Positions 13,263-30,381 of a stretch of DNA of 64,000 bases are shown here, one piece after another. The notes below the pieces were generated by a model. It saw only the letters and a program-made list of their open reading frames with translations, did no database searches and had not been told where the DNA came from. Every line of letters starts with the position of its first letter. Within the stretch, counting starts at the first letter, position 1. The stretch is from an uncultured Chloroflexota bacterium. Lineage in GTDB: Bacteria > Chloroflexota > Anaerolineae > Promineifilales > Promineifilaceae. Position numbers and translations under genes: made by a program. The stretch spans positions 3,875 through 67,874 of the forward strand of contig CAADGU010000415.1 of NCBI GenBank assembly GCA_900696625.1. The letters run 5' to 3'.

Positions 13263-14545
13263 GGCCGTGGGCCTCCCCCACCCTGCCCCGATGGCAGCAG
13301 CGGATCATCCAGCCGCGCCTGCATCTGCGCCGACGCATCGGCCAGCAGCCCGGCCATAATCCGGTGCGGCACCAGGGCGCGCGGCGAATCGGCAGCAACG
13401 GCCTCTTCCAGGGCATCAATCAGCCGCAGGATGATTACCTGGTTCAGTTCAGATTCCCCTTCCTGGCGCATCGCTTCCAAATTTTGGATGATGGTTTCAA
13501 TGATCTCAATTTGGGCGCGGGCGCGCGCCTGTTTCTTGCGGCGGATCACTTCGGCGTCAACGGTCGCTTTTTCGATCTCGATTCTGCGCTGCCACTCGGC
13601 CTGCCAGGTGGCGATGTTTTGCTTTCGGATTTCTTCAGGTAATTCGAGGGGGCCGACTCGGGCCGCCATGATCTGGATGCCTGACAGCGCCGGATCGCCC
13701 TGGATGGTTTGCAGGATGTGCTGTTCAATCTCTTGCAGGGGGGATACGGCCGTAGATGGATAATGAATGAGTGCATCCAGATTATACTGCGCCAGTTCCC
13801 GCACCAACTCGGCCGCCGCCCGTGGCGTCAGTTGCTCCGTCCACCCATATGATGTCCCTTCCATATTCACCGATTGCAGGTAACTGATCAGGAAAATGGC
13901 CTCTTTGTCAAATGGAAATAACAAATGGGCCTGCGACCGATCCGCTGCGTCTTGTTTCACCTGAAAAATCACCGTCACCGAAGTTTCCAGCGGAATACCA
14001 TCGCGGGTGCTGGCATGAACAGGCTGCTGGCGCAGTTGCACCCGCAAATCTATCACCTGGCGAATCTCTTCCTTGGCAAACAGGTCCACAAAACCTGGCC
14101 CGGCAGCGCGGATAAAACTATTGCCTTTGGTAATGGCCAACACCTGGTAGCTGCGTACAATCCCGGCGCGCATGGTAAACAGACTGATGGGAATATCGGC
14201 CCGCGGCACAACGGCGGCCGATGGCTGCCGTTTTTTATCATCAGGGCGCGGTTGGCGCACAAACTGAGTGGTCAGACCGGTGTAATGGCGCATGATCAGC
14301 CGCACCCCCTCCCACCAGCCCAGCCGGCTGCGCAAAGGGGCGGCAAACTGGGCAAAAAAAAGCACACCGAGGGTAAAGGTGACGCCGGTCACATACAACC
14401 AGATAAGCGACAAAGTAGCGCCAAAGGGATGGCCGCGCCTGTCAGCTAAAAAATAGGCCATCACCGCCAACCCAAAAGCCGCCAGGATAAAACCCAGCAA
14501 GCCCAATTCCGGTCGTTGACGCTTATTTTTCTTCTTCTTGCTCAA
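13259..14545 (-). CDS. membrane protein with SPFH/band-7-like domain (paralogue of 11928-13262)
   Basis: 428 aa. 'AAGPGFVDLFAKEEIRQVIDLRVQ..STRDGIPLETSVTVIFQV', and the same TM + SPFH + coiled-coil layout as its neighbour. Confidence 0.6.
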   Translation of the reverse strand: MSKKKKNKRQRPELGLLGFILAAFGLAVMAYFLADRRGHPFGATLSLIWLYVTGVTFTLGVLFFAQFAAPLRSRLGWWEGVRLIMRHYTGLTTQFVRQPRPDDKKRQPSAAVVPRADIPISLFTMRAGIVRSYQVLAITKGNSFIRAAGPGFVDLFAKEEIRQVIDLRVQLRQQPVHASTRDGIPLETSVTVIFQVKQDAADRSQAHLLFPFDKEAIFLISYLQSVNMEGTSYGWTEQLTPRAAAELVRELAQYNLDALIHYPSTAVSPLQEIEQHILQTIQGDPALSGIQIMAARVGPLELPEEIRKQNIATWQAEWQRRIEIEKATVDAEVIRRKKQARARAQIEIIETIIQNLEAMRQEGESELNQVIILRLIDALEEAVAADSPRALVPHRIMAGLLADASAQMQARLDDPLLPSGQGGGGPRP

Positions 14546-14692
14546 GGGTCACCCTATTTCCCCGGAAGTATTCAGTTTCCGGGGAAATCATAATGCAACT
14601 ATACCATAGCCCCGTTTTGGGCGGCAACCAACATTATGTCATTTTTTTGACGGCGATTGAAAGGGGGATATAATGTTGCCCGCTTCAAAAAA

Positions 14693-14766
<74 letters not shown>

Positions 14767-14826
14767 CCTGGCAGCAAAAACTGCCTCGTTCCTGCTAACT
14801 GTATTCAGTTGGTAAGGTGCGGACAA

Positions 14827-14868
14827 AAAACGCGCTGCCCTTGTCTCGTAAACTCGGCAGCGCGTTTT
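14827..14868. terminator. bidirectional-looking intrinsic terminator (downstream of xis on the minus strand)
   Basis: aaaacgcgctgcc (14827-14839) / ggcagcgcgtttt (14856-14868), flanked by A-runs and T-runs. Confidence 0.55.
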
Positions 14869-14872
14869 GTTT

Positions 14873-15082
14873 TTATTCAGATTTTTTAGTGCTGGCCAGC
14901 CGCTGCTGTTCAAAGGCTTCAATGTCCGACAAGGGGATGATGTAGGGGCTGGTTTTTGCTAACGGCCGTGACTTGTAAGCATTTGGGAATTCTCCGGCGC
15001 GGATCATGCGCCGGATTGTCATAGCAGATACACCCAATCGCTTTGCTGCATCAACCGCAGATATTGAATCTTGGTTCATCAT
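14873..15082 (-). CDS. excisionase-family helix-turn-helix DNA-binding protein
   Basis: 69 aa. 'ISAVDAAKRLGVSAMTIRRMIRAGEFP..YIIPLSDIEAF' matches the Xis/AlpA-type HTH pattern. Adjacent to attL. Confidence 0.7.
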   Translation of the reverse strand: MMNQDSISAVDAAKRLGVSAMTIRRMIRAGEFPNAYKSRPLAKTSPYIIPLSDIEAFEQQRLASTKKSE

Positions 15083-15197
15083 GACCGTTGCGTCTCCGTT
15101 CCTGTTGTGCTAGATGTTCAAACTATAGATGCATATTTTCATTTCGTCAATAGCAAAGATTTATTTAATTGCCAATATAAGGAGGAACAAAAATCAA

Positions 15198-16028
15198 ATG
15201 CGCAAACAACTTCTAGTTATTCTTCTTATTGCCCTTGTGGCAACTATTTTTGCCTGCTCGCCGGAACCTGAGACCGTGGAAGTGGAGGTGGAGGCCACAC
15301 GTGAGGTCACACGCGAGGTGGTGGTTACCGTAGAAGTCACGCGCCTGGTTGAAGTAACACCAGTAGCACCAACATCACTACCTGCGGCCTCTTTTGGCTC
15401 GGTAGAATGTGACGACTATACCGCCGCAGTGCGAGACTTGTCTCAACAGTGGTCAGACGCCTTCGACCTCGCATCGAGTACAGCACGTGTCTCTCTTGGG
15501 GACAGGGTGGCCGAGATGCAAGAGATCCGGCGCGAGATGTCAAGGCTAACCGAACCGGGGTGCGCCAGTCAGATAGAAGTCCAAGATCGGCTGGTTGAGA
15601 TGATGGATGCCGGAATCGAATTCTTCACTGAGTTCATGGCTCAAAACGACATTTCTGCGGAAAGTGCCCAATATGCCATAGCTGTTCACCTAACCCTTGA
15701 TGCTTTAGAGGCTCTCTATAATCATTCCACTAAACTGCCCAATCGAATCCATTACTACGCCCTGGGAACCACTGGGTTTTCCCTACGGTACGCAGATGAA
15801 AATGGGGAACTGATCACGCCGGAGGCAGGTCCCACAGAGCGATTCGGCTTTGATGATATGCCGGTCGTGTTTACCGCTCTTTTGCCCGAAGGGGAGACGG
15901 CTAAAGTAACCTTGTTTAACCCAACCAGCACAAGCGGGGATTTGACCTGTTTTATCCTGCTCAATGGAGAGGCCGTCGCAACCGAGACTCAAACAGCACA
16001 GACAACATGTGAGTTTGAAATCCCCTAG
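15198..16028 (+). CDS. lipoprotein of unknown function (moron-like, lower-GC island)
   Basis: 'MRKQLLVILLIALVATIFAC' is a signal peptide with a lipobox Cys. SD aaggagga lies 8-9 nt upstream of ATG 15198. Composition is visibly AT-richer. Confidence 0.6.
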   Translation: MRKQLLVILLIALVATIFACSPEPETVEVEVEATREVTREVVVTVEVTRLVEVTPVAPTSLPAASFGSVECDDYTAAVRDLSQQWSDAFDLASSTARVSLGDRVAEMQEIRREMSRLTEPGCASQIEVQDRLVEMMDAGIEFFTEFMAQNDISAESAQYAIAVHLTLDALEALYNHSTKLPNRIHYYALGTTGFSLRYADENGELITPEAGPTERFGFDDMPVVFTALLPEGETAKVTLFNPTSTSGDLTCFILLNGEAVATETQTAQTTCEFEIP

Positions 16029-17130: not shown

Positions 17131-17320
17131 ACTGTCGCACAGTATTGTGCGCCACACAGTATAGGAAAAACGGTCGTTTGGCGGGGCAACGGCCGATGGG
17201 TGGGAAGCTGCTGGCGTGAGCAAAAAACCCCTCGGCCGTCTCATTCAACGGCCGTAAACGGCCGTGTAAGCTGTGGGCAACGGGTTATGAGAATCACACT
17301 TTGCAAAGTTGGGAGATGTT

Positions 17321-18343
17321 ATGAACGAATCAGAAAGTGAATCAGTGGCGCGGCCGACGGCCGTGTTGCCGACGGTCGTTGCCCAACCGGTGGATCAACG
17401 GCCGTCGGCCGTGTACCTGGCCGGGCTGTCGGCCGGCAGCCGGCGGACAATGGCGCAGTCGTTGGGCGCCATCGCCGCCATTATCAGCCCTTCGGCCCCT
17501 TCGGCCCCTTCGGCCCCTTCGGCAGGCTCAGGGGCCGGCACAGGGGACGGCTCAGGGGCCGGGGCCAGCCATCTGGAGATTCCCTGGCACCTGCTGCGCT
17601 TTCAGCACACGGCCGCGCTGCGCAGCCACCTGGCCGAGCATTATGCCCACAGCACGGCCAACAAGATGCTGAGCGCCTTGCGCGGTGTGTTGAAGGCGGC
17701 CTGGCGGTTGGGCTTAATGTCGGCCGAGGATTACCACGCGGCCGCGTCGGTGGCCAACGTGAAGGGGGAGCGGGTACCGGCCGGGCGGGCGCTGGCGGTG
17801 AGCGAGGTGCAGCTGCTGTTGGCGGCTTGCGCTTCGGCAAGCTCAGCGCAAGCTGCCCAGGGGCGGCGGGATGCGGCCGTTATTGCTACCCTGTATGCCT
17901 GTGGCCTGCGGCGGGGGGAGCTGGTGGGGCTGGACCTGGCCGATTACGATGGCCAGGCGCTGCGAGTGCGCCGGGGCAAGGGCAATAAGGAGCGGTTGGT
18001 GCCGGTGGCGGCCGCGGCGGCCGCGTACCTGGCGGCCTGGCTGGATGTGCGCGGCCACCGGCCGGGGCCGCTCTTCCATGCCCTGGACGGCCGTCACAAT
18101 GGCGGCCGCCTCAGCACGCAGACGATCTATGACATTTTGCAGGTGCGGGCACAGGCGGCCGGGATACGGCCGTTGTCGCCTCACGACTTCCGGCGCACCT
18201 TCGTCTCGCTGCTGCTGGACGCCGGCGAGGACATTGTGACGGTGCAGCGGCTGGCCGGGCACGCCAGCGTGGAGACGACGGCCCGTTACGACCGGCGGGG
18301 GGAGGATGTGAAGCGGCGGGCGGTGGAGAGGCTGCAATGGTAA
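17321..18343 (+). CDS. tyrosine recombinase (phage integrase / XerC-D-like), internal to the prophage
   Basis: 'ACGLRRGELVGL', 'GKGNKERLVPV', 'SPHDFRRTFVSLLLDAGEDIVTVQRLAGHASVETTARY' contain R..HxxR..Y catalytic residues. ATG 17321 follows gggaga. The N-terminus carries a SAPSAPSAP low-complexity insert. Confidence 0.85.
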   Translation: MNESESESVARPTAVLPTVVAQPVDQRPSAVYLAGLSAGSRRTMAQSLGAIAAIISPSAPSAPSAPSAGSGAGTGDGSGAGASHLEIPWHLLRFQHTAALRSHLAEHYAHSTANKMLSALRGVLKAAWRLGLMSAEDYHAAASVANVKGERVPAGRALAVSEVQLLLAACASASSAQAAQGRRDAAVIATLYACGLRRGELVGLDLADYDGQALRVRRGKGNKERLVPVAAAAAAYLAAWLDVRGHRPGPLFHALDGRHNGGRLSTQTIYDILQVRAQAAGIRPLSPHDFRRTFVSLLLDAGEDIVTVQRLAGHASVETTARYDRRGEDVKRRAVERLQW

Positions 18344-18406
18344 TTAGGAATGGAGATTGGTGTCACCGGCGCTGGCGCTGCGGCGCCAGGCTGTCACCAA
18401 CAGGAT

Positions 18407-18476
18407 GCCGGCAACAGCATGCCGGCAACAGCATGCCGGCAACAGCATGCCGGCAACAGCATGCCGGCAACAGCAT
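18407..18476. repeat. 14-bp tandem repeat GCCGGCAACAGCAT x5
   Basis: Five perfect head-to-tail copies at 18407, 18421, 18435, 18449 and 18463, beginning 64 nt after the recombinase stop. Confidence 0.9.
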
Positions 18477-18661
18477 ATCAGCGATGCTATACGGCCGTTG
18501 CCCTGGTAGGCTGTTGTGGGGCTTGCTGTGAAAGGGGAAGGAGCTAATGACTATGTGAAACGCTATGGGAGATCATACACACGGCCGGGGGCGGCGCCAC
18601 TTTGCCACAACAAGATAGACGCATCATCTCCAGGAAGATTATACGCACGATCTGACGGCCG

Positions 18662-18868
18662 TTAACGGCCGTTGCGACAGTAGGGGCGGGTGCGGCCGGG
18701 GCACCGCTGGCCGGGTTCGATGTGGCGCCAGAAGTGGCTGACACGGCCGTCCATGCGCCGGCGCTGGCGCAGGGCAACGGCCGCGCCACAATGGGGGCAG
18801 CGGGCGCGGCCGGGCGCGGCCGCTGCGGCGGTGATGGCTGAGCCATCGGGGAGATGGGCCTGTTTCAC
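18662..18868 (-). CDS. possible small Cys-containing (CPHCG..CPG) protein
   Basis: 68-aa ORF with a GTG start and no SD. Coding status is uncertain. Confidence 0.3.
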   Translation of the reverse strand: MKQAHLPDGSAITAAAAAPGRARCPHCGAAVALRQRRRMDGRVSHFWRHIEPGQRCPGRTRPYCRNGR

Positions 18869-18965
18869 AATCAGGAATTATGAATTAGGAATTAGGAATG
18901 GGCTAGAGGGGGCGGCCGCTGTGTGGCGGCCTGGTCTCGATTGTACGGCCGTGCGGCCGGGTCGC

Positions 18966-19175
18966 CTAGTGAGGAATGTCATCCGAGGCCGCTGCCCAAT
19001 ACCCGGTTGGGCCTTCAATGGCCTGGCCGCGCATGGCCAGCAGCACCAGGCGGCTGGTGGCTTGCAGGATGGTGACGCCGGCGGCGTGGGCGATGGTGGC
19101 CACCGGCGTGGGGGTGGCGGTGAGCAGGCGGCCGATGAGCGCCTGTTGTTGCTCGTAGGGGGTGGGGTTGGTCAT
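18966..19175 (-). CDS. hypothetical small protein co-transcribed with the repressor
   Basis: 69 aa. The ATG overlaps the stop of the upstream XRE gene (ATGA at 19172-19175). Confidence 0.5.
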   Translation of the reverse strand: MTNPTPYEQQQALIGRLLTATPTPVATIAHAAGVTILQATSRLVLLAMRGQAIEGPTGYWAAASDDIPH

Positions 19176-19396
19176 GTGGTCTCGTCCTCATCAGCCACAT
19201 AGACAAAGATGTCACCGGGCTGCACCTCCAGCAACTGGCAGATCCGGGCCAGGGTGTCCAGGTCTATACGCTTGCTGCTGCCATGATACAAGGCGTGGGC
19301 AGTGTTGTAGGCGATATTTGCACCTTCAGCCAGGGCACTGATGTGCATACGCCTGGCACCCAAGATTTCAGAGAGTTGGTTCTTGATGTATCCCAT
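19172..19396 (-). CDS. XRE/Cro-CI family HTH repressor (short form, no peptidase domain)
   Basis: 'IKNQLSEILGARRMHISALAEGANIAYNTAHALYHG..IDLDTLARICQLLEVQPGDIF' is an HTH_XRE pattern. ATG 19396 is preceded by GGAGGC. Divergent from the early rightward genes. Confidence 0.75.
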   Translation of the reverse strand: MGYIKNQLSEILGARRMHISALAEGANIAYNTAHALYHGSSKRIDLDTLARICQLLEVQPGDIFVYVADEDETT

Positions 19397-19417
19397 AATT
19401 GTTTGCCTCCGCACTCT

Positions 19418-19505
19418 AGGGTACTCGACGGCCGCCAGATTGTCAAGGAAGTTGCACAAAATATGCAACTTGTTATTGACAATAGTATGCAACTTGTTGT
19501 ATAAT
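19418..19505. promoter_or_regulatory. divergent promoter/operator region (genetic switch)
   Basis: Plus strand: TTGACA 19476-19481, 18-bp spacer, TATAAT 19500-19505. Minus strand: TTGACA 19446-19441, 17-bp spacer, TACCCT 19423-19418. Direct repeats ATGCAACTTGTT at 19463 and 19487. Nested inverted repeats ATTGTCAA/TTGACAAT and GTTGCA/TGCAAC. Confidence 0.6.
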
Positions 19506-19544
19506 TTCCTTAGTTAGTTGATACGACCTAAGGAGATACAGACA

Positions 19545-19748
19545 ATGAAAACCAACCAATTCACCCACCTGAGCGACGCCGAACTGAACGAAGCCCTCTT
19601 CGGCATTAGTGAGCAACCCATCTACCGCCCGACCGTCACCGCGACCACCACCGAGCAACCCCGCCCCTACTGGAACAACCCAACCGCGCGCAGCAAGGAC
19701 TGGCGCGAACTGAGCGACGCCGAACTCAACGACGCGCTCTTTGGCTAG
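19545..19748 (+). CDS. hypothetical early protein with duplicated LSDAELNxALFG motif
   Basis: 67 aa. SD aaggaga lies 8 nt upstream of ATG 19545. First gene downstream of the consensus promoter. Confidence 0.55.
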   Translation: MKTNQFTHLSDAELNEALFGISEQPIYRPTVTATTTEQPRPYWNNPTARSKDWRELSDAELNDALFG

Positions 19749-19808
19749 ACCAACCACACCCCTGGCCGCCCCCACCGGCGGCCAGGGCATACCCCGGAGG
19801 AACCTGAG

Positions 19809-20330
19809 ATGAAACCCACCCTGACCCAATTAACCCACCTGTCCACCGGCGATTACTTCGCCACCTGGCTGCGCAGCGGTACGACCGTCGAGTCCCTGCA
19901 CGGCAGCGACGGCCGTTGCCTGGCCTCTTCCCTGGGGGCGAAGCTGCCCCGCCTGACAAAGGCAGAGATGGCGGCCGCCCACGCGGAGCGCCACCCGGCC
20001 TACGACCTGGCTGCCCAGGGCACGGCCGCCCGGCCAGAACTGGCGCGGCGGATGCAGGCAGCGGCCGACCTGGTCGCCGGTGGCCTGGTGACGCTGTACG
20101 AAGACGGCGCGGGCATTGTGGCCAGCCGCAGCCATGCCTGCGCCCACCAGGTGGACGACCACCACTGCGACTGCCAGGACTTTCAGTTTCGCGGTAGCTG
20201 GTGCGCCCATCGTATCGCCCGGCGCATGGCGCTGGCCTTGGGGCAGCCGGAACTGGTACGGCCGTTTGTGGCCCCGGCCGCCTTTCCCCAACCCCGTTTA
20301 TCCATTAGCGCGCCGTCACCGGCTGGCTAA
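19809..20330 (+). CDS. SWIM zinc-finger domain protein
   Basis: 'HHCDCQDFQFRGSWCAHRIA' fits the CxC..CxH SWIM signature. SD ggagga upstream. Confidence 0.7.
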   Translation: MKPTLTQLTHLSTGDYFATWLRSGTTVESLHGSDGRCLASSLGAKLPRLTKAEMAAAHAERHPAYDLAAQGTAARPELARRMQAAADLVAGGLVTLYEDGAGIVASRSHACAHQVDDHHCDCQDFQFRGSWCAHRIARRMALALGQPELVRPFVAPAAFPQPRLSISAPSPAG

Positions 20331-20393
20331 AAAAAAGGCCAGGCGATGCCTCACAATCGCCTGGCCAACACCCCCACGAGGAGATGTAAAACC

Positions 20394-20672
20394 ATGCACA
20401 ATTCTACTGAAAACCAGGACACAATCAACCAGGACACGGCCGATGATGCGCCTGATGGCGTGGCCGTCGCCGATGGCCCGGCCAGCCCACCCACCCCTCG
20501 GCACGGCCGTAACGCCGCCCAGGATGGCTGGACACGGGCGTACCGTCTGGCGGACCCCAACCACCCGGAGAACCGCCGCCGGCGCAACTTCTGGCGGGCG
20601 GCCAGTGACCCCAAGACACAGGCACGAGTGCGCAAGTTGGCCCTGTCTCGGCCGAATCCCCTGAATTTTTAA
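20394..20672 (+). CDS. hypothetical protein
   Basis: ATG 20394 is preceded by gaggag. No motif recognised. Confidence 0.5.
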   Translation: MHNSTENQDTINQDTADDAPDGVAVADGPASPPTPRHGRNAAQDGWTRAYRLADPNHPENRRRRNFWRAASDPKTQARVRKLALSRPNPLNF

Positions 20673-20703
20673 TCGTAATCCGTGAACCGTTAAGGAGAGC
20701 ATC

Positions 20704-20946
20704 ATGTTTGAGATTGACCAGGTATTAGAAGCGTTATTCACCTTCTCGCGGGATGCACGGCCGGAGGACTTCCAGGCCATCTTCGGCGCCCACGTGGGCC
20801 GCCATCTCTTCGAGAAATTTGCCGACCAGTATCAATTTGACCTGTTGGCTCTGTGGGGCAGCCTGGACACAGAAAGCCGGGCGCGGCTGGCCAGCCACCT
20901 GGTGGCGGCCGGGGCTGCCGGGAGGGTAGAGCCATGCAGCAAGTAA
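20704..20946 (+). CDS. hypothetical protein
   Basis: SD aaggagag upstream of the ATG. 80 aa. Confidence 0.55.
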   Translation: MFEIDQVLEALFTFSRDARPEDFQAIFGAHVGRHLFEKFADQYQFDLLALWGSLDTESRARLASHLVAAGAAGRVEPCSK

Positions 20947-21143
20947 AAGGCAATACCATTGACCTGCGCCACCCGACAAAGGATGTGCCGGCAACGGCCG
21001 TCATCCTGGACTTCTGGCGGCGCAACGGCCGGAATGCCGGCCTGAAGCTGGAATTCCCCGGCGGGCACACCTGCTGCCTGACCTATGCGGAGATTGCCGA
21101 CCTGCAAACAAACGAGGAGACAAACCATGACAGCCCCCAATAA
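20934..21143 (+). CDS. hypothetical protein
   Basis: Internal ATG 20934 (MQQVKGNTIDL..), overlapping the previous gene by 13 nt. Confidence 0.45.
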   Translation: MQQVKGNTIDLRHPTKDVPATAVILDFWRRNGRNAGLKLEFPGGHTCCLTYAEIADLQTNEETNHDSPQ

Positions 21144-21498
21144 CACCCCCCCAAGAAGTGTATCCGAACTATTCCCCAGCCCGTGGCTGCACGCCGATGA
21201 CCTGAACGGCCGCACGGTGACTGTGACCATCCGGCAGGTGACGGTGGAGAGCATCCGTAATCCCCAAACGCGCAAGAGCGAGTGGAAAGCGGTGCTGGAC
21301 TTCGGCCGCAGCAAGCGACTCATTGTCAACAAGACCCAATCGCTGGCCCTGGCCGACATCGCCAACAACGAAGAGTTTGCGGCCTGGTCTGGCCTAACCA
21401 TCAGCCTGAGTCCGGCCGTAGCCCATAACGGCAAGCCCACCATCGCCATTCAACGGCCAGCGCGCCCGGCCCTGGGCGAAGAAATAGACCATGATTAA
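21127..21498 (+). CDS. hypothetical protein
   Basis: ATG 21127 is preceded by gaggaga. 123 aa. Confidence 0.55.
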   Translation: MTAPNNTPPRSVSELFPSPWLHADDLNGRTVTVTIRQVTVESIRNPQTRKSEWKAVLDFGRSKRLIVNKTQSLALADIANNEEFAAWSGLTISLSPAVAHNGKPTIAIQRPARPALGEEIDHD

Positions 21499-21532
21499 AC
21501 CATAAATGGCCTATTACCAGACCTGCCAGCAG

Positions 21533-21569
21533 CGGCCGTCCACTTTTGTGGACGGCCGTTTTTTGTTTT
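21533..21569 (+). terminator. intrinsic terminator between the early rightward genes and the terminase genes
   Basis: cggccgtccac (21533-21543), loop tttt, gtggacggccg (21548-21558), then ttttttgtttt. Confidence 0.7.
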
Positions 21570-21669
21570 CCCAAGTGCGCTTTTTTAGCCCCGTTACCCT
21601 ATTCCAGTTCGGCCAAAACTGTGTAGATTTTCAGTGAGTACCACATAATGAACGTGGGCGAGGAGCTGC

Positions 21670-22263
21670 ATGGCCATCACCAAAAAATCGCCGCTGACGG
21701 GCAAACAGCTGGCGTTTATTGACTACTACTTCATTTGCGACTTCAACGGCACAGAGGCGGCCCGGCGCGCCGGGTACAAGGGCGACGATGCTACGTTGGC
21801 AGCCATCGCCTACGAAAACCTCAGAAAGCCTCATATTGCTGCCGAGATTCGCCGCCGCACCAAAACACGAGGGATGGATGCGGACGAAGTCATCGGCCGC
21901 CTGAGCGACCAGGCACGGGGTACGATGGGGCATTTCCTGAACTTCGAGGGCGGCCGCCAGGTGGAGATTGACCTGAACCAGGCGCGGGAATTGGGGGCGC
22001 TGGGCCTCATCAAGAAAATAAAAATGGTGGAGACCGTCTCCCCCAGTGGAGATGAGGAAATTGTACTCACCCGCCGCACCGAGATTGAGCTATACCCCTC
22101 CCAGCAAGCATTGGCCCACCTGGCGCGTATCCTGGGGCTGATGGGCGCCAAGGGGACTGAGGAAGACCCGCTGCACGTGGAGATTCCGGGCCTGAACGCC
22201 GCCCTCACCCGCATCTACGGCCGTGACCATGACAACGACGCCAACGCCAACGGCCGAACTTGA
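21670..22263 (+). CDS. terS: terminase small subunit
   Basis: 'LTGKQLAFIDYYFICDFNGTEAARRAGYKGDDATLAAIAYENLRKPHIAAEI' is the typical Terminase_2/P27-type N-terminal HTH. Sits immediately upstream of terL. Confidence 0.8.
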   Translation: MAITKKSPLTGKQLAFIDYYFICDFNGTEAARRAGYKGDDATLAAIAYENLRKPHIAAEIRRRTKTRGMDADEVIGRLSDQARGTMGHFLNFEGGRQVEIDLNQARELGALGLIKKIKMVETVSPSGDEEIVLTRRTEIELYPSQQALAHLARILGLMGAKGTEEDPLHVEIPGLNAALTRIYGRDHDNDANANGRT

Positions 22264-23635
22264 TCGCCTCCTGTTGGCGGCAAAAACGGCCGGGGTGCAG
22301 CGGGAGCAAATCGCCCGCTTCGTCCGCGCCGGGTATGTGGCTCAGCCTAAGCAACTGGAATTCCACGCTGCCTGCCGCCTGGCCGACCGGCCGGGTGGCC
22401 CGGTCCTGATTGGCTACGGCGGCGCACGCGGACCAGGTAAGTCTCACGCCAGCATTGTGCAGGCGGCCGTTGACGATTGCCAGCGGGTACCCGGCCTCAA
22501 GGTGCTGTTCCTGCGCAAGGTGGGTAAGGCGGCCCGCGAATCATTCAACGACCTGCGGCAACGGACGCTGCGCTACCTGCCCCACGCTTACAACGCCGGC
22601 AGCGGCGCCCTGTCCTTCCCCAACGGCTCCCTTATCGTTATTGGCAACTTCTACACTGAGAAGGACATTGACAAATATCTGGGCATCGAATACGACCTGA
22701 TCATCATCGAGGAAGCCACCCAACTAAGTGAAGAAAAGTTTAAGATGCTGCGGGGCAGCCTGCGCACCAGTAAACCCAACTGGCGGCCGCGCATGTACCT
22801 GACCACCAACCCCGGCGGCATCGGCCACCAGTGGTTCAAGCGGATGTTCGTGCTGCCCTGGCGCAGCGGCCGCCAGACCGAGACACGCTTCATCCAGGGC
22901 ACCTATCGAGACAACAGTTTTCTGAATCAGGAGTATCGAGAGTATCTGGAGGGGCTGACGGGTGTATTAGGCCGCATGTGGCGCGATGGCGATTGGGACA
23001 TTGGCGCCGGCACCTTTTTTGTCAATTGGGACTACGACCAGCATGTTGTGGCCCCATTCCGTGTGCCCGATCACTGGCCGGTCTGGGCCAGCCTGGATTA
23101 TGGTTTCGGCCATCCTACGGCCGTCTACCTGCACACACGAAATGATGGCACGGTCTGGACGATTGCCGAGCACGTACAGGCGCGGTGGCTGGCGCCGCAG
23201 CACGCGGCCGCCATTCACGAGATGGCGCGGCGCTGCGGCCGGCGGGTGGAAGATTTCGAGTCGTTTGTGGCCGGGCATGATGTCTTCGCCGAGCGGGGCA
23301 ACAGCGACGGCATGACGATTGCTGAGCAATACGCAGCCGAAGGCATCAAGCTGACCCCGGCCAACATCGGCCGTATCTCCGGCGCGGCCGAAATGCTGCG
23401 GCGCATGGGCGACCCGGCGGCCGGCATCGCCCCCACCTGGCGCATTTTCGACACCTGTGTGCAGTTGATCGAATGCCTACCCAATTTACAGACGGATCCC
23501 AACCGGTCAGAGGACGTGCTGAAGGTGGACGCCAACGAGGAGGGGTTGGGTGGCGACGATCCCTATGACAGCGCCCGCTATGGTTTGATGGAGGCGCGGC
23601 CGCCGTTTGCCGGTATGTTTGTGGTGCGGCGGTAG
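22223..23635 (+). CDS. terL: terminase large subunit
   Basis: Walker A 'GGARGPGKSHA', Walker B 'DLIIIEEATQL', and a C-terminal nuclease-like half. 470 aa. Starts at GTG 22223 or ATG 22229. Confidence 0.9.
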   Translation: MTMTTTPTPTAELDRLLLAAKTAGVQREQIARFVRAGYVAQPKQLEFHAACRLADRPGGPVLIGYGGARGPGKSHASIVQAAVDDCQRVPGLKVLFLRKVGKAARESFNDLRQRTLRYLPHAYNAGSGALSFPNGSLIVIGNFYTEKDIDKYLGIEYDLIIIEEATQLSEEKFKMLRGSLRTSKPNWRPRMYLTTNPGGIGHQWFKRMFVLPWRSGRQTETRFIQGTYRDNSFLNQEYREYLEGLTGVLGRMWRDGDWDIGAGTFFVNWDYDQHVVAPFRVPDHWPVWASLDYGFGHPTAVYLHTRNDGTVWTIAEHVQARWLAPQHAAAIHEMARRCGRRVEDFESFVAGHDVFAERGNSDGMTIAEQYAAEGIKLTPANIGRISGAAEMLRRMGDPAAGIAPTWRIFDTCVQLIECLPNLQTDPNRSEDVLKVDANEEGLGGDDPYDSARYGLMEARPPFAGMFVVRR

Positions 23636-23736: not shown

Positions 23737-23780
23737 AAACGGCCGCGTGAACCACTGCATCACGCGGCCGTTTCGGTTTT
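23737..23780 (+). terminator. hairpin terminator downstream of terL
   Basis: aaacggccgcgtga (23737-23750) / tcacgcggccgttt (23760-23773), followed by cggtttt. Confidence 0.55.
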
Positions 23781-23880
23781 GGTGCCACCGGCGCACCCAC
23801 GTCGCCGTGCGGGTGTCACCATTTTCCTATTTCCCCACGCCCCGGCCGGGATACAATACACACATCATTTCTTTCTCGCA

Positions 23881-23955
23881 GAGCGCACCGACGCCTCCGG
23901 GCCAGCGACCGCCAGACGGCGCCCAGGTTGGTTTGGAGGCGTTTTGTGTTTGTTT
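23881..23955 (+). promoter_or_regulatory. box + hairpin + U-tract element, copy C (diverged)
   Basis: gagcgcaccgacgcc box; stem cgcctcc (23892-23898) / ggaggcg (23935-23941); the loop contains ccgccagacggc; tail gttttgtgtttgttt. The 3' arm supplies GGAGG for the methylase start. Confidence 0.6.
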
Positions 23956-24800
23956 ATCGAATTCAGCGAGCAGATTGCCTGACAGCGGCGGCCGATTACC
24001 CAGACGGCCACTTCCAGCTGCTGCTTACCTCTACCCCCTACCCTGGACAACGATCCTTTGATCTGAGCGTTCCGGCCTACTTTGATTGGTGGCGGCCGCG
24101 CCTGGAGGCATTGGCACCGCTGCTGCACCCCGTCACCGGCGTCCTGGTGCAGGTCATCAAGTTCCGGCGCGCCGGCGGCTGGTTCGACCGCCGCATCTTT
24201 GAGCTATTTGACCTGTACACGGCCGTTGGCCTGCACCCCATTGACCTCTACATCTGGGACAAACTGAATAGCCCCCCCTCCGGCAACCACGGGCGGCACG
24301 ACCGAGATGAATACGAATTTTGCTTTGCCTTGGCCAAGGGCGAGGGCTACACCAAAAACCAGGCCAGACGGCCGTACAGCCCTAAATCTATCACCGGCGA
24401 CCGCGCCAAAACGCGGCAGCCGGATGTGGCCGGCAGCCACGCCAACGGCCACCGGCGGCTGCACCCAGCCGGGGCGCTGCAAGGCAACGTCATCCGCGCC
24501 AGCAGCAGCGGCGACCAGAACCGGCCGCGTGTCAGAGGTGGCTCATTCCCGCGGCGGCTGGCCGCACGTTTCATCGAGACGTTCAGCAATCCCGGCGACT
24601 GGGTGCTGGATCCGTGCTGTGGCGCGGGTACCACGCTGGTGGAAGCCATCCGCCTGGGCCGTCCGGCCGTGGGCATGGATATTGATGGCACGGCCGTCAG
24701 CACGGCCGCCGATTGGGCACAGGCAGCAACGGCAGCGCGTTTTGGGGTGTGGCAGGACTATAGTACGGCCGCGCCTGGCACCGTGTCAGAAGCGGCGTAA
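23946..24800 (+). CDS. DNA methyltransferase (N6-adenine/N4-cytosine, beta-class motif order)
   Basis: 'ADCLTAAADYPDGHFQLLLTSTPYP' ((D/S)PPY-like motif IV) precedes 'VLDPCCGAGTTLVEAIRLGR' (motif I). GTG 23946 lies 6 nt after GGAGG (the ORF opens at TTG 23928). Confidence 0.85.
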   Translation: MFVYRIQRADCLTAAADYPDGHFQLLLTSTPYPGQRSFDLSVPAYFDWWRPRLEALAPLLHPVTGVLVQVIKFRRAGGWFDRRIFELFDLYTAVGLHPIDLYIWDKLNSPPSGNHGRHDRDEYEFCFALAKGEGYTKNQARRPYSPKSITGDRAKTRQPDVAGSHANGHRRLHPAGALQGNVIRASSSGDQNRPRVRGGSFPRRLAARFIETFSNPGDWVLDPCCGAGTTLVEAIRLGRPAVGMDIDGTAVSTAADWAQAATAARFGVWQDYSTAAPGTVSEAA

Positions 24801-24875
24801 GCAAAAAGAGGGACTATTGACCCCTAGAACCAGCCTCCGGGAGCCGTAACATAGACCCGGAAGAACTAAATAGCC

Positions 24876-24950
24876 TGAGCGCATTGACGCCTCACCGGTG
24901 CCTGCGAGCCGCCAGACGGCCGTACCGCCACCAGTGAGGCGTTTTTTGTT
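24876..24950 (+). promoter_or_regulatory. box + hairpin + U-tract element, copy A (also an intrinsic terminator after the methylase)
   Basis: tgagcgcattgacgcc box (24876-24891); stem cgcctcaccggtg / caccagtgaggcg; the loop contains gagccgccagacggccgt; tail ttttttgttt runs into ATG 24952. Confidence 0.65.
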
Positions 24951-24951
24951 T

Positions 24952-25335
24952 ATGAATCAGACACAAGCCCAACCTATCGCGGATCCGCCAGTCGCCCACA
25001 CGGAGCTGGTTGACGCCCTGGCCGCGACCGCGCTGAGCCTGTACCGGGCGGCAATGGTAGCCAATGCCGGGGAGTTCGTTTCGTCGCTGCGCCACGACCT
25101 GCTGCACCCACGGCCCGGTGACATTGTGCTGGATGTGCATGATTGGTGGCGGCCGGCGGATGAGCGCCTGGGGGTACTGGAACATATCATGCGCCAGGCC
25201 GACGGCGGCGGCTGCGTAGCTTTTGTGCGCCGGTTAAACGGCCGTTACGAGACCTGGAAACACGCCCACCTGGTCAAGGTCAACACGCAGCCATTTAATC
25301 TCCCCACCACCCAGACCCAGGAGCGCGTAGCATGA
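24952..25335 (+). CDS. hypothetical protein
   Basis: ATG 24952 directly follows element A. 127 aa. First of four coupled small genes that precede the portal gene. Confidence 0.5.
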   Translation: MNQTQAQPIADPPVAHTELVDALAATALSLYRAAMVANAGEFVSSLRHDLLHPRPGDIVLDVHDWWRPADERLGVLEHIMRQADGGGCVAFVRRLNGRYETWKHAHLVKVNTQPFNLPTTQTQERVA

Positions 25336-25658
25336 TGCCAGACCACCAGGTCACACTCGCCTTGCGGCCGGATGAACAGCCACACCTGTACCGGCAGCGG
25401 CCGTCGCTGCCCACCGATGGCTCGCTCTACGCCTTAATGCTGCGCAGCACGCCAGCGTTCCCTGGCCAGGTCGCGGGCGGCCAGTCCGCCGGCGATAGTC
25501 GCAGCCTCCTCCTGATTTGCGCCCATTACGGCCGGCACGGATGGGCATGGATTACCCTGGAAGCGAACACCCGGCAGCTTCTGGAGAACACGATGCGCCA
25601 GCAACGGGCGGTAATAGACCGCTGGTATTACATGGAGCTAGTACGAGGTATTCAATGA
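25332..25658 (+). CDS. hypothetical protein
   Basis: ATGA overlap with the previous gene. 108 aa. Confidence 0.5.
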   Translation: MMPDHQVTLALRPDEQPHLYRQRPSLPTDGSLYALMLRSTPAFPGQVAGGQSAGDSRSLLLICAHYGRHGWAWITLEANTRQLLENTMRQQRAVIDRWYYMELVRGIQ

Positions 25659-25939
25659 ACGTCATTCCCACTATCCATCACCTGATCGCTCTCAAGTTGT
25701 GGCTCAAGAAACTCCAGGAAGGGCAAAGCGGCCGTGCCGCCCGGCGCTTGCTTATTGTGCGCGGCCAGCGGCAGGATGACCTCGGCCGACCCATTACCCT
25801 GGTTGCCAGTCCCTACGCCCACAATTTCTACCACCCACGGCCGCACGCGCCGCGACCGCGCAAACCGGCGCCAGCATTCCATGCCAATCTGGTGGCGCGG
25901 CAGAAGAAGGCGCGGCCGTATCCCGGAGACACCGTATGA
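25655..25939 (+). CDS. hypothetical protein
   Basis: ATG 25655 overlaps the previous stop (ATGA). 'MNVIPTIHHLIALKLWLKKL..'. Confidence 0.5.
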   Translation: MNVIPTIHHLIALKLWLKKLQEGQSGRAARRLLIVRGQRQDDLGRPITLVASPYAHNFYHPRPHAPRPRKPAPAFHANLVARQKKARPYPGDTV

Positions 25940-26187
25940 CACCCGTCAGTTTCCACCCCCAAGAGCAGTTGTTCACCTCGACAGACCCCAACGTCGGCGA
26001 CCTGCCCACCATCCGGGTCAAGTATGCCGACGGCCGCCGGGGCATCGTCTCTTGCTGGCGGCCGTCGTTCAGGGAACGGGTACGCATACTGACGGGACGG
26101 CCGGTTTACCTTTGCGTCCTGGGTTGGCTGCATCCGCCGGTGCTGCTGTCTACCGACGCTCACGAAGTGGGGGACAAGCCATCATGA
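25936..26187 (+). CDS. hypothetical protein
   Basis: ATGA overlap on both sides. 83 aa. Confidence 0.5.
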   Translation: MTPVSFHPQEQLFTSTDPNVGDLPTIRVKYADGRRGIVSCWRPSFRERVRILTGRPVYLCVLGWLHPPVLLSTDAHEVGDKPS

Positions 26188-27686
26188 TCCTACCTGACCA
26201 GGTAAACCTGGCTGAGATTGCCTATTTGCAGCATCGGGCCGAAGAGGAGAAAGAAATCCAGGCCCGTATCGTCCGGGCGCGGGAGCTGGATGAGGGTGAC
26301 TTCGACGACACGCTGGCGACGCAGACTGCCAAATATCTTGTCGGGGGCACGGCCGATGAGTTAGAGGGTGTGAACTTGATGTCCATCGTGTTGCGCACCG
26401 TGCTGCGTCGCATTGATGTAAAGGGTATTGCCACCACCGACAACGCCCTGACCATCTGGCTGGAACATATCTGGGACGCCAACAGCATGGCCATCAAGCA
26501 GTCAACTGTCCATCGCCTGGCGGAGCGGGATGGTGAGGCGTTTGTGATTGTGGACTATGACATGGGCACGGAACGGCCGTGGCAACCAGATGGCCCGCGG
26601 GGAATGCCCACTATTTACATTCATCAACGGTACACGGACCCAGAGGTAGGCGGTGACGGCGATGGCTGCCGGGCATTTTATCGCAACGACGACCCCAACC
26701 AGCCCCTGGAAATGGTCTCGAAACGATGGACGGAGACTATCTGGGAAAACAAAAAGGCCACCACCCGCCAGCGCATGACACTATACATTGCCAGACAAAA
26801 AAACGTGGCCGCGCGCATTGAGAAGTATGTCTGGGGCATCTCTGGGGCCTGGGAGCCATACACAGAGACCACCATCAACCAGGCGGGGGCGCTGGTAGAG
26901 GAAACATGGCCGATCTGGTGGACAGATGACCGCACGGCCAACGGCCGTTCGCTGCCGCTCGCCGTTATTCACTTCCGCAACGAGGAAATGGAGCCACTGA
27001 CTCGCCGCCTCTGGGGGCTGCAAAATGGCATGGATCATGCCTGGTCTGCCTTGTTGGGTGGGCTAACACAAACGGCATTTCGCACACTGTTTGTATTGGG
27101 ATTCTTCCCCACCCTCGATGGCAAAGCGCCGGCGGCCGATGGCTCCAACCTGATCCCGGTCGCACCGGGCACCATCATCGGCTCGGCCGAAAAGGGCGCC
27201 GACAAGGCGTCTGTCACCGTTATCGAACCGGCCGATCTCTCCTCCGTGTTGTCCACCATGGATAAGATGGCCATCTATTGTGCGTTCGTGGCGGGGCTGC
27301 CCATCGGAAATTTCATGGTCTCCCATCAGGTGATGGCGGCCGGGACATTGCAGCAGGGCGAAAGCGACCTGCTGGCCCACGTCAACGCCCTGGTGCGGCT
27401 GTGGGGCGCGTCCTGGAACCAGTCACTCAGCGTGGCGCGGCGGTTGGACAATCTGTACGGCCGGGCCAGCCACAATGAAGCGGTCAAAATTGAAACGATA
27501 TTTGCACCCGCCGAAGTGGCCGATATTTCCAGCCGTAATGAGGAGGCCAAAGCGCAGGCGGAGACAGGGGTACCGGACGAGGTCATCTGGCGCACGGTTT
27601 GGGGGTTCAGCGAGGAACAGGTGCAGGAGATGAAGCGTATTGTGGCTAATGTCAATGTCCCGGTTGCCTCACCGGGCCAGGAATAG
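26184..27686 (+). CDS. portal protein (SPP1 gp6-like, assigned by size and position)
   Basis: 500 aa, sitting between the terminase and the scaffold/capsid genes. ATG 26184 overlaps the upstream stop. The longer ORF from 25734 overlaps two coupled genes and was not used. Confidence 0.6.
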   Translation: MILPDQVNLAEIAYLQHRAEEEKEIQARIVRARELDEGDFDDTLATQTAKYLVGGTADELEGVNLMSIVLRTVLRRIDVKGIATTDNALTIWLEHIWDANSMAIKQSTVHRLAERDGEAFVIVDYDMGTERPWQPDGPRGMPTIYIHQRYTDPEVGGDGDGCRAFYRNDDPNQPLEMVSKRWTETIWENKKATTRQRMTLYIARQKNVAARIEKYVWGISGAWEPYTETTINQAGALVEETWPIWWTDDRTANGRSLPLAVIHFRNEEMEPLTRRLWGLQNGMDHAWSALLGGLTQTAFRTLFVLGFFPTLDGKAPAADGSNLIPVAPGTIIGSAEKGADKASVTVIEPADLSSVLSTMDKMAIYCAFVAGLPIGNFMVSHQVMAAGTLQQGESDLLAHVNALVRLWGASWNQSLSVARRLDNLYGRASHNEAVKIETIFAPAEVADISSRNEEAKAQAETGVPDEVIWRTVWGFSEEQVQEMKRIVANVNVPVASPGQE

Positions 27687-27691
27687 GAGCT

Positions 27692-27898
27692 ATGGCATAC
27701 AAGGAGATCAGGGCAAGGGGTAACGGCCGTTTACTGGGCGAGTTCGACCCAGACCGCGACCTGTTTCGGATAAAGGTCAAGGGCGAGTTTTACGTCATTG
27801 ACCTGGAAGAGGAGCGCGGCAGCGTCAGGAATCCGGTTGGCACACCCGGCCAGACCGGAATACTGCCATCGCTGCATGAGGTTCCGTCAGAAAATTAG
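27692..27898 (+). CDS. hypothetical small protein
   Basis: 68 aa. Starts 5 nt after the portal stop, with ggag upstream. Confidence 0.5.
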   Translation: MAYKEIRARGNGRLLGEFDPDRDLFRIKVKGEFYVIDLEEERGSVRNPVGTPGQTGILPSLHEVPSEN

Positions 27899-27957
27899 CA
27901 CCAGGTAGCTATTCCAGCGGCCGGCAACGGCCGCTACCATGTCACCAACCGAATAAT

Positions 27958-28023
27958 TGAGCGCATTGACGCCCTGGGCACAGAGCCGCCAGACGGCCGT
28001 GTGTCGAGGGCGTTTATTTGTTT
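27958..28023 (+). promoter_or_regulatory. box + hairpin + U-tract element, copy B
   Basis: tgagcgcattgacgcc (27958-27973) is identical to copy A. Stem cgccct..agggcg. The loop contains the same gagccgccagacggccgt. Tail tttatttgttt. Confidence 0.65.
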
Positions 28024-28149
28024 AGGGTCGAGCAGCCTGGTAACGGGCGAAATCAGGGCCGGAAACAACGAAAACAGCGAAGGGCTGGATGAGGGCCGCA
28101 AACACCTGTATCGCTGACCACGAGCAAATTCACAAGGAGATTAGCCGCG

Positions 28150-28746
28150 ATGGCTGGAACAACCACAACCACAGAACAAAACCCGCAGGGGGATCCTGCT
28201 GCCAGCCCAACCGTGACGGATGGGCAGCAAACGACTGAGCAGACAACCGAACAGGCAACCACCCAAACGGCCGATGAAGTGCAGGCCGAATTGGAACGCA
28301 CCCGCGAGGCGCTGAAAAAGGCCAACGCGGAAGCGGCCGAACGCCGACACAAGCTCAAGGAGCTAGAGGATGCGCAGCGAGCGGCCGAACGGGCAGGTAT
28401 GGATGAAAGTGCGCGCCTGGCGGCCGAATTGGAAGACCTGAAGAAGGCAACGGCCGACCGGGAGACATTGGCACAAGAAGCAGAGGCGCTGCGCACGGCC
28501 GTAGCCACGCAGGTGGACGCGCTGCTGAAGGAACTCAATGTGCCCAAGCACATTTTGCCCCTGATGGAGTCCATGTCCCCGGCGCAAAAGCTCACCTACC
28601 TGACGGAAAACCGGGCGCACTTCGCCCGGCCGGCAACCACACCGGCCGACATTGACGCCGCAAACCGGGGGCGCAACACCCAAACCGAGACCGATGAGCA
28701 AAAGGAGGCGCGGCTAAAAAAGCGCTTCCCCAGCCTCAGCCGGTAA
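28150..28746 (+). CDS. capsid scaffolding protein
   Basis: 198 aa. Highly charged coiled coil (ELERTREALKKANAEAAERRHKLKELEDAQRAAE..), located just upstream of the capsid genes. Confidence 0.6.
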   Translation: MAGTTTTTEQNPQGDPAASPTVTDGQQTTEQTTEQATTQTADEVQAELERTREALKKANAEAAERRHKLKELEDAQRAAERAGMDESARLAAELEDLKKATADRETLAQEAEALRTAVATQVDALLKELNVPKHILPLMESMSPAQKLTYLTENRAHFARPATTPADIDAANRGRNTQTETDEQKEARLKKRFPSLSR

Positions 28747-30351: not shown

Positions 30352-30381
30352 GAGGACACGGCCGTATACGGCCGTGTCCTC
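30352..30381 (+). terminator. hairpin after the major capsid gene (attenuator-like, weak U-tract)
   Basis: gaggacacggccgt (30352-30365) / acggccgtgtcctc (30368-30381). Confidence 0.45.

Follow-up and report, generated by a model that had tools for sequence, protein, structure and literature searches.

A boxed hairpin element occurs three times, always on the + strand, in the late region of a prophage carried by a 64,000-nucleotide (nt) piece of a Chloroflexota chromosome (contig CAADGU010000415.1, hereafter the window). The three copies, termed C, A and B in their order along the DNA, precede a methylase gene (C), a block of small open reading frames (ORFs) plus the portal gene (A) and the scaffold-capsid block (B). 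With a probability of about one half we interpret them as promoter-proximal boxed terminators (attenuators) that gate head and packaging genes, with a small protein as candidate partner. The evidence consists of conservation, covariation within the hairpin, positions, promoter enrichment and linkage between protein and element, whilst termination, its regulation and the role of the small protein as regulator are inferred from sequence. The three copies are as follows.

23880-23955, + strand: copy C, with box GAGCGCACCGACGCC at 23881-23895, apical sequence CCGCCAGACGGC at 23909-23920 and a U-rich tail at 23942-23955; covariance-model score 70.8 bits.
24876-24952, + strand: copy A, with box TGAGCGCATTGACGCC at 24876-24891, apical sequence GAGCCGCCAGACGGCCGT at 24906-24923 and a 3' foot consisting of GGCG at 24938-24941 followed by UUUUUUGUUU; 86 bits.
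27958-28023, + strand: copy B, with box TGAGCGCATTGACGCC at 27958-27973, apical sequence GAGCCGCCAGACGGCCGT at 27983-28000 and a 3' foot consisting of GGGCG at 28008-28012 and the tail UUUAUUUGUUU at 28013-28023; 63.6 bits.

Common to all three copies are the box GAGCGC-N3-GACGCC, a strong hairpin and a U tract, and each has the shape of an intrinsic terminator, with a GC-rich hairpin and a U-rich tract immediately 3' of it on the transcribed strand. An earlier note on this DNA had reported an identical 16-nt box in copies A and B, and TGAGCGCATTGACGCC is indeed exact in both, with three mismatches in copy C (23880-23895). The looser box GAGCGC-N2-4-GACGCC is found three times in the 64 kb, in each case on the + strand, against an expectation of 0.04, and none of 100 shuffled sequences reached three. 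Exact matches to the 18-mer GAGCCGCCAGACGGCCGT lie at 24906-24923 and 27983-28000 (expected 0.01), and those to CCGCCAGACGGC are confined to the three copies. Predicted folding energies were -43.6, -37.9 and -38.9 kcal/mol (z = -4.6 to -5.8), with none of 200 shuffled sequences as stable. A covariance model built from 12 element copies detected, at E<1, these three copies alone in the window.

The box had been described as linear, which holds for only part of it: the box itself is real, but its GACGCC half forms the 5' strand of a basal helix whose partner is GGCGUU (in copy C, 23890-23895 with 23938-23943), leaving only GAGCGC and the spacer unpaired. Stems of the window copies are 18-25 base pairs (bp) long and contain internal loops. 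The tail GTTTWTTTGTTT, attributed to both A and B, is exact in copy B and must lose one T to match copy A. The methylase Shine-Dalgarno sequence, GGAGG at 23935-23939, lies in the 3' arm of copy C, as had been noticed, and the GTG start codon at 23946 lies within the U tract. In copy A, GAGG at 24936-24939 likewise lies in the 3' arm, 12 nt upstream of an ATG at 24952 that directly follows the tail.

Relatives of the prophage (contigs with portals of 48-91% identity to the window portal, given here as L numbers) come from Anaerolineae and other Chloroflexota metagenome-assembled genomes (MAGs), the nearest being the MAG 'Chloroflexota bacterium BJ8' (portal identity 91%). The earlier note had made homologues in related phages a test of its proposal, and the elements do recur in these relatives. 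They are present before the methylase gene in L006, L010 and L013, before the small-ORFs-plus-portal block in L006, L010, L013 and L127-L130, and before the scaffold-capsid block in L006, L010, L013, L014, L127, L129 and L130. In distant relatives the box and foot are retained around loops of CGAGA, CACGA, CAAGA, CCUGA, UAAAA or UUUAA. The copy at 4503 in L013 is only a plain 11-bp hairpin, and at 6831 in the same contig the sequence GAGTGC...GACACC is matched by a compensating GGTGTC. The scaffold-slot copy of L010 bears an A-type stem, copy types thus being reshuffled within genomes.

The wider family was found once the loop was left out of the search pattern. A strict pattern with the loop had no match in viral_contigs, and a box-plus-loop pattern gave 64 matches in genome_contigs and 46 in metagenome_contigs, nearly all of them chance matches in GC-rich coding DNA; the true ones were the prophage of the BJ8 MAG (3 copies) and one JGI contig (L118), with none besides. 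The loop-free pattern GAGCGC-N2-4-GACGCC-N17-47-GGCGTTTT, scanned against viral_contigs (IMG/VR), identified 66 loci, approximately 50 of which are genuine clean hairpins with unrelated stems, often tipped by a GNRA loop, on contigs of 44-65% GC. Among unique stem interiors, 43 of 53 add at least 3 pairs stacked directly on the conserved base; after shuffling, about 5% do so. Every type of pair is represented. Paired cells make up 99.1% of the model alignment, a share that drops to 29-57% after sliding of the partners. The consensus tail of 49 dereplicated copies is GGCGUUUUUU(G/U)UUU. GAGCGC and GACGCC stand 2-4 nt apart, an extra base inside GAGCGC is allowed (GAGGCGC, GAGACGC), and many of the stems are short, at 10-14 bp. 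Genes downstream of the element across the family encode portals of PHROG families 12, 3753, 156 and 104, terS and a terminase-associated HNH protein. The folds, the stem pairing and the model alignment together bear out the proposal that these are specific, strand-specific, RNA-type elements with covarying stems at module junctions.

This element family is widespread and appears to be undescribed so far. No Rfam match at E<=1 coincided with the elements in window positions 20-32 kb or at six wider-family loci, a blastn search with 7.9 kb against GenBank phages gave no match, and neither the family consensus (blastn) nor the small protein (tblastn) had a true match among cultured phages. A match in Microcystis phage Mae-JY35 was rejected, lying inside coding sequence.

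The loop shared by copies A and B had been read as conserved and as an argument for a specific interaction. The 18-mer is exact in both, as stated above, but rather than a large open loop it forms a 4-bp apical stem, GCCG/CGGC, closing a 5-nt loop, CCAGA, together with flanking bases. It terminates in one octamer of the palindrome ACGGCCGT, which is present 119 times in the window against 1.8 expected, in host and prophage parts alike; CGGCCG is present 398 times (6.2 per kb), again in both parts. Because ACGGCCGT is so abundant, the identity of the A and B loops is partly genomic background. Apical loops across the wider family vary, comprising CCAGA, CGAGA, CACGA, CAAGA, CCUGA, UAAAA, UUUAA and GCAA, GAAA and GUAA tetraloops, and the argument from conserved loops therefore falls. 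Conservation of the loop is confined to the subfamily of the window; universal are the 5' box and the GGCGU-U-tract foot, with a hairpin between them whose sequence is free. The palindrome itself (examples at 17248-17265, 30358-30375 and 46118-46152) is abundant in the close relatives L006, L010, L013, L129 and L130 and absent from unrelated viral contigs. It resembles cyanobacterial HIP1 as an abundant palindrome but differs from it in sequence, and the methylase encoded at 23946-24800 may be related to it.

Promoter-like sequences are enriched immediately upstream of the box. The best sigma-70-like score there averaged 7.04, compared with 5.86 +/- 0.26 (maximum 6.58) for shuffled sequences. 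Twelve of 50 upstream sites scored at least 9 of 12, where 2.3 were expected and the reverse-complement control gave 1, and at three sites a perfect TTGACA-16/17-TATAAT precedes the box. Across the family 15-30 nt separate the end of the -10 hexamer from the box. The leader between the promoter-like site and the box is A-rich and G-poor with AAUA-like motifs, although per-position information is weak (<=0.41 bit). The putative promoters of the window, and the leader and ordinary terminator discussed with them, are the following.

23827-23857, + strand: candidate promoter of copy C, CTATTT, 19 nt, TACAAT, with the -10-like hexamer ending 23 nt before the box.
24847-24852, + strand: -10-like TAACAT of copy A, 24 nt before the box, with a weak -35 region; the weakest candidate of the three copies.
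27909-27940, + strand: candidate promoter of copy B, CTATTC, 20 nt, TACCAT, with the -10-like hexamer ending 18 nt before the box and the palindrome GCGGCCGGCAACGGCCGC inside the spacer.
21599-21629, + strand: promoter-like CTATTC...TAGATT before terS and after an ordinary terminator at 21531-21570, without a boxed hairpin.
23737-23782, + strand: ordinary box-less terminator after terL, read directly from the sequence as GAAACGGCCGCGTGA...TCACGCGGCCGTTTC and then GGUUUUGG.
28024-28149, + strand: leader of 125 nt from copy B to the scaffold-like gene.

The motif CTATTY-N17-20-TAnnnT is found only three times in the window, always on the + strand and in intergenic gaps of the late region, namely before terS, copy C and copy B, and may be a kind of late promoter specific to the phage, its -35 hexamer being non-canonical. 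Small palindromes are often contained in the spacers of this motif. The two nearby ordinary terminators (21531-21570 and 23737-23782) lack a box, consistent with the earlier view that the elements are more than generic terminators. Transcripts of terL would meet the terminator at 23737-23782 before they reach the promoter-like site of copy C; stopping them does not depend on copy C, which must therefore act on local transcripts. In the leader that follows copy B, the motifs AGCRGC-GGTAACGGG and GCWAACAC are kept in L006, L013, L129 and L130; L010, L014 and L127 lack this leader, and no supported consensus secondary structure was obtained for 28024-28149 and its relatives.

Clustering of neighbouring ORFs revealed one small protein family encoded immediately upstream of the element, the stand-alone members of which are 63-76 amino acids (aa) long. 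Its member in the window is given here.

27692-27898, + strand: ORF for a 68-aa small protein, with 60 nt between its stop codon and the box of copy B.

A diverse profile detected the family at 42 element-bearing loci, always upstream of the element and co-oriented with it, and the distance from stop codon to box had a median of 37.5 nt (<=100 nt in 29 and <=400 nt in 39 of the 42). In the reverse test all three contigs picked by the small protein alone have an element downstream. Of 16 IMG/VR loci found via the small protein, 14 carry a canonical element 23-94 nt downstream; the remaining two (L213 490-600 and L214 2657-2770) are one sequence, with a terminator in the usual place and the diverged box GACCACACGATGGCC, so the box is not absolutely fixed. 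The neighbours of the small-protein gene vary, its position being between terL and portal, between portal and scaffold, between MuF and the next block or upstream of terS, which suggests a functional unit rather than inherited gene order. A model in which ribosomes at the stop codon of the small ORF occlude the box was dropped, as the distances range from 9 to >300 nt.

The family comprises at least 184 clusters at 50% identity and belongs to no Pfam or PHROG family. AlphaFold predicts a core of four beta strands and a short helix (predicted local distance difference test score 82-87, residues 1-45). A Foldseek search with this model against the PDB and BFVD gave nothing below E = 0.08, the best PDB match being YonK at E = 1, and longer family members contained no informative domain fusions. 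Transfer RNA (tRNA) genes for Pro and Met lie between the small-protein gene and the element in L130 (12240-12331) and L199 (10270-10345), and a mini CRISPR-like array of 3-4 repeats occupies this position in L198 (10188-10353). Remnants resembling tRNA, not called by ARAGORN, are seen at the matching place in L128 (~12285-12320) and L129 (~12265-12300). The L198 array has three clear 32-nt repeats, GTCGCCTCCCGCGCGGGGACGTGGATTGAAAC, with a period of 66-68 nt, and is bracketed by two copies of the 31-nt 3' end of the small ORF (10152-10182 and 10407-10437).

These data can be assembled into a mechanism in which RNA polymerase, arriving from the local promoter or by read-in from upstream, would stop at the U tract by default. 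The GC-rich foot, the U tract and the small-RNA cargo (tRNA, CRISPR-like) just upstream argue for functional intrinsic terminators, such cargo being in keeping with an element that closes a short unit under active transcription. At copies C and A, moreover, the 3' arm would lock in the ribosome-binding signals of the following gene, its Shine-Dalgarno sequence and its start codon. Because the elements follow promoters and directly precede essential head and packaging genes, termination must be overcome, and expression of the late block would require an override. Since the box and the 5' strand of this stem overlap, the box is the likely recognition site of a factor that would block completion of the hairpin. 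The best candidate for this factor is the approximately 65-aa beta-rich protein encoded just upstream of one element per phage (27692-27898 in the window). That, in many uncultured tailed phages, this protein binds the box in the nascent RNA, blocks the hairpin and so switches on portal, scaffold, capsid and terminase genes, its gene and one target site forming a cassette, is a tentative proposal, and in this specific form a rather doubtful one.

Several observations weigh against the attenuator interpretation. All element and protein sequences come from uncultured sources, no cultured phage matches, and the case is a sequence-based one. The -35 hexamers of the promoter-like sites in the window family are poor, at about 3 of 6, and for this reason the promoters of the window are treated as putative. 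The small-protein gene of the window lies behind copies C and A, and a regulatory role would need leaky read-through or another promoter. Its predicted fold gives no hint of nucleic-acid binding, and the median core isoelectric point is 8.2. Approximately 20 element-bearing loci have no small protein within the available sequence, which in some extends to 12-15 kb (L144, L149, L189), so the protein is either not obligatory or is replaced. A site read at the DNA level, or a cassette spread by recombination, could also account for the strong conservation of the box.

The attenuator interpretation has partial counterparts among characterized systems. In the Q/PR'/tR' region of lambda the gene for a small phage protein is directly followed by a promoter, a short leader and an intrinsic terminator that blocks the late genes, and the same layout of promoter, leader, terminator and late gene is found here, with promoters recognized by enrichment and the terminator by its shape. 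In Stx phages tRNA genes can sit in the late leader. The components, however, are unrelated to those of lambda: no Q homologue was found here by Pfam or PHROG, the candidate being about 65 aa and beta-rich. Further differences are that the conserved site abuts and overlaps the terminator stem and not the promoter, that one genome holds several cassettes and that these would gate head and packaging genes, not lysis genes. Among flanking and early ORFs, Pfam and PHROG searches yielded no N-like or Q-like family, although such searches may miss short disordered proteins, and a search of the early ORFs (19172-21498) against the same databases for an antiterminator or sigma factor gave only a Cro/CI-type helix-turn-helix and a SWIM zinc finger. 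Known RNA-binding antiterminators act at the 5' strand of the terminator stem. The ribonucleic antiterminator (RAT) sites of BglG and SacY-LicT, and the ANTAR and HutP systems, resemble the present element in that a conserved RNA site in a promoter-proximal leader shares sequence with the 5' arm of an intrinsic terminator. They differ in that the element is similar to RAT or ANTAR sites neither in sequence nor in structure, no CAT/PRD, ANTAR or HutP domain was found, no alternative antiterminator helix is evident, and the context is that of phage late genes.

The main rival to regulated attenuation is a mobile promoter-terminator cassette on which the elements would serve as constitutive terminators or insulators, with the box kept by spread of the cassette and recombination between copies swapping modules such as the methylase; we regard this as unlikely, though a serious competitor. 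Its precedent is the promoter/stem-loop cassettes (PeSLs) at gene-module borders of T4-type phages (PMC2839356, PMC4122927), which share with the present elements repeated promoter and terminator motifs that flank variable genes and are common to several phages. Consistent with such mobility, copies C and A flank the methylase gene, terL-portal cargo differs among relatives (methylases, type I and MmeI/Eco57I restriction-modification, reverse transcriptase, SLFN/AlbA), copy types are reshuffled as in the A-type stem of L010, four unrelated portal families are preceded by one cassette type, and the 3' end of the L198 small ORF is duplicated around the inserted array. However, only 14 nt and the foot are constant and the rest is fully diverged, making a poor substrate for homologous recombination and suggesting selection on the box. 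Cargo in L127-L130 is without two flanking copies, and the element lies 3' of the promoter and would hence block the local promoter and provide no insulation. The stem-loop of a PeSL occupies the space between the -35 and -10 hexamers or overlaps the latter, and stops upstream transcription before re-initiation (PMC2839356), whereas here the boxed hairpin starts 15-30 nt downstream of the -10-like hexamer; PeSLs also lack an invariant linear box and a linked protein gene. The earlier alternative of recombination boundaries stands as far as the flanking of the methylase by C and A is concerned, but terL-portal cargo in relatives is usually without two such copies, and a boundary function is viable as a secondary role.

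Other explanations are less probable, and those invoking RNA processing, small RNAs or a DNA operator have little support. A processing, stability or translation element is improbable: read-through would extend the hairpin by pairing of box and tail, giving an RNase III cleavage site, a 3' stabilizer or a sib-like retro-regulator, and cleavage would release the sequestered Shine-Dalgarno sequences of the methylase gene and the ORF at 24952. The 18-25-bp stems with internal loops, the Shine-Dalgarno sequences and start codons within the 3' arms of C and A, and the possible pairing of GAGCGC with the tail (GUGUUU in copy C, GCGCUCU past the U tract in L127, a full Watson-Crick extension in L014) fit this idea. 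T7, with RNase III sites just downstream of promoters, and lambda sib/tI similarly have conserved intergenic hairpins after a promoter or gene that can be extended on read-through. The T7 sites lack a U tract, however, and the 10-14-bp stems of many family members are too short for RNase III; box-tail pairing is mostly G-U and not consistently possible, and at most loci the next gene has its own Shine-Dalgarno sequence past the U tract. Classification of the elements with the lambda nut and HK022 put sites, as the earlier note had proposed, is in our view quite improbable, even though a promoter-proximal linear box followed by a hairpin tipped with a small stem and a 4-5-nt loop (GNRA in most of the wider family) recalls nut, where the loop of the small hairpin is important, and could be imagined to load a processive antitermination complex on RNA polymerase. 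The box, GAGCGC-N2-4-GACGCC, is unlike boxA (CGCUCUUA), which is absent, and is half base-paired. The boxB hairpin of nut has a stem of about 5 bp with a GNRA-like pentaloop and no U tract, whereas the 4-bp apical stem here tops a terminator stem of 18-25 bp with a U tract, itself a terminator, and a loop that is not conserved in the family. A put site needs two adjacent stem-loops of about 70 nt in all and has no terminator tail, in contrast to the single hairpin and U tract found here. The cognate N-type protein of nut carries an arginine-rich motif, and the searches of neighbouring ORFs and Rfam described above are equally contrary. The elements could instead be small RNA genes, in which a promoter, the box as 5' seed and a terminator would make a 60-90-nt trans-acting RNA, an arrangement suggested by the upstream promoter, the A-rich, G-poor unstructured leader with its conserved single-stranded box and the terminator with U tail. 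This is very improbable: box complements in the window are at chance level (4 against 3.6 expected, three being the elements themselves), the proposed seed is half base-paired, and the start codon of the next gene falls within or right beside the U tract, so that essential genes need read-through. Least probable of all is a DNA-level site, whether an operator, a stoperator-like roadblock or a recombinase site, with an incidental hairpin. The box is asymmetric, highly conserved, in a single orientation and at about +10 to +30 from promoter-like sites, and the stoperators of cluster A mycobacteriophages offer a precedent. Spacing of 2-4 nt and an extra base in GAGCGC are awkward for a site in duplex DNA, however, the second half of the box covaries with its RNA partner (GACACC/GGTGTC), and the conserved G-U pair of the foot works on + strand RNA only.

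The window is a chromosome piece of a Chloroflexota bacterium with a prophage. Host genes occupy positions 1 to ~14.7 kb (aconitase X, UvrC, PfkB kinase and others) and are met again from ~57 kb. The remaining features are listed here.

14693-14768: tRNA-Val gene.
17309-18343: integrase.
19172-19396: divergent Cro/CI-type repressor, facing a perfect TTGACA-18-TATAAT promoter at 19476-19505.
19809-20330: SWIM zinc-finger protein, one of six small early ORFs.
21670-22263: terS.
22223-23635: terL.
23946-24800, + strand: N6/N4 DNA methyltransferase (methylase) gene, between copies C and A.
24952-27686, + strand: block putatively gated by copy A, with four small ORFs (24952-26187) and then the portal.
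26184-27686, + strand: portal, phrog_104.
28150-28746: scaffold-like gene, followed by the capsid gene.

The early region (17309-21498) is very small, with the integrase, the repressor, the perfect sigma-70 promoter and the six small ORFs, and contains no recognisable replication genes before terS. In relatives the interval from terL to the element before the portal is a cargo hot spot, spanning 291-7625 in L127, 2828-9317 in L128, 5380-8286 in L129, 6382-8694 in L130, 7073-8570 in L010 and 2464-4024 in L013. Its contents include type I restriction-modification with an SLFN/AlbA gene, MmeI/Eco57I-type enzymes, reverse transcriptase (RVT_1) and 1-3 methyltransferases. The L128 prophage seems to be truncated right after the box GAGCGCCCGACGCC (12335-12350), the hairpin of which is lost, and past this point an ATPase gene is followed by an IS605-type OrfB/Y1 transposase pair (14352-15905). 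In L144 (13025-13089, - strand) an Rfam scan matched DUF3800-VIII RNA at 47 bits, a score exceeding the gathering threshold; this RNA has no connection with the element.

Only for a handful of model phages is the timing of late-gene expression known in depth, the regulators being lambda Q and N, T4 gp55/33 and P2 Ogr, and we know of no regulatory biology described for prophages of Chloroflexota. For annotation, the element would mark the starts of late modules and the insertion sites of tRNA, CRISPR-like and defence cargo. Should it prove to be only a mobile terminator cassette, it would document PeSL-like modular shuffling beyond T4-type phages, and if the factor is confirmed the two would form a compact, orthogonal terminator/antiterminator pair for synthetic biology. 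For uncultured phages, Chloroflexota prophages among them, the combination of a 14-nt box, a terminator and a linked family of approximately 65-aa proteins with at least 184 clusters provides a handle on what is possibly a common and unrecognised form of head and packaging gene gating.

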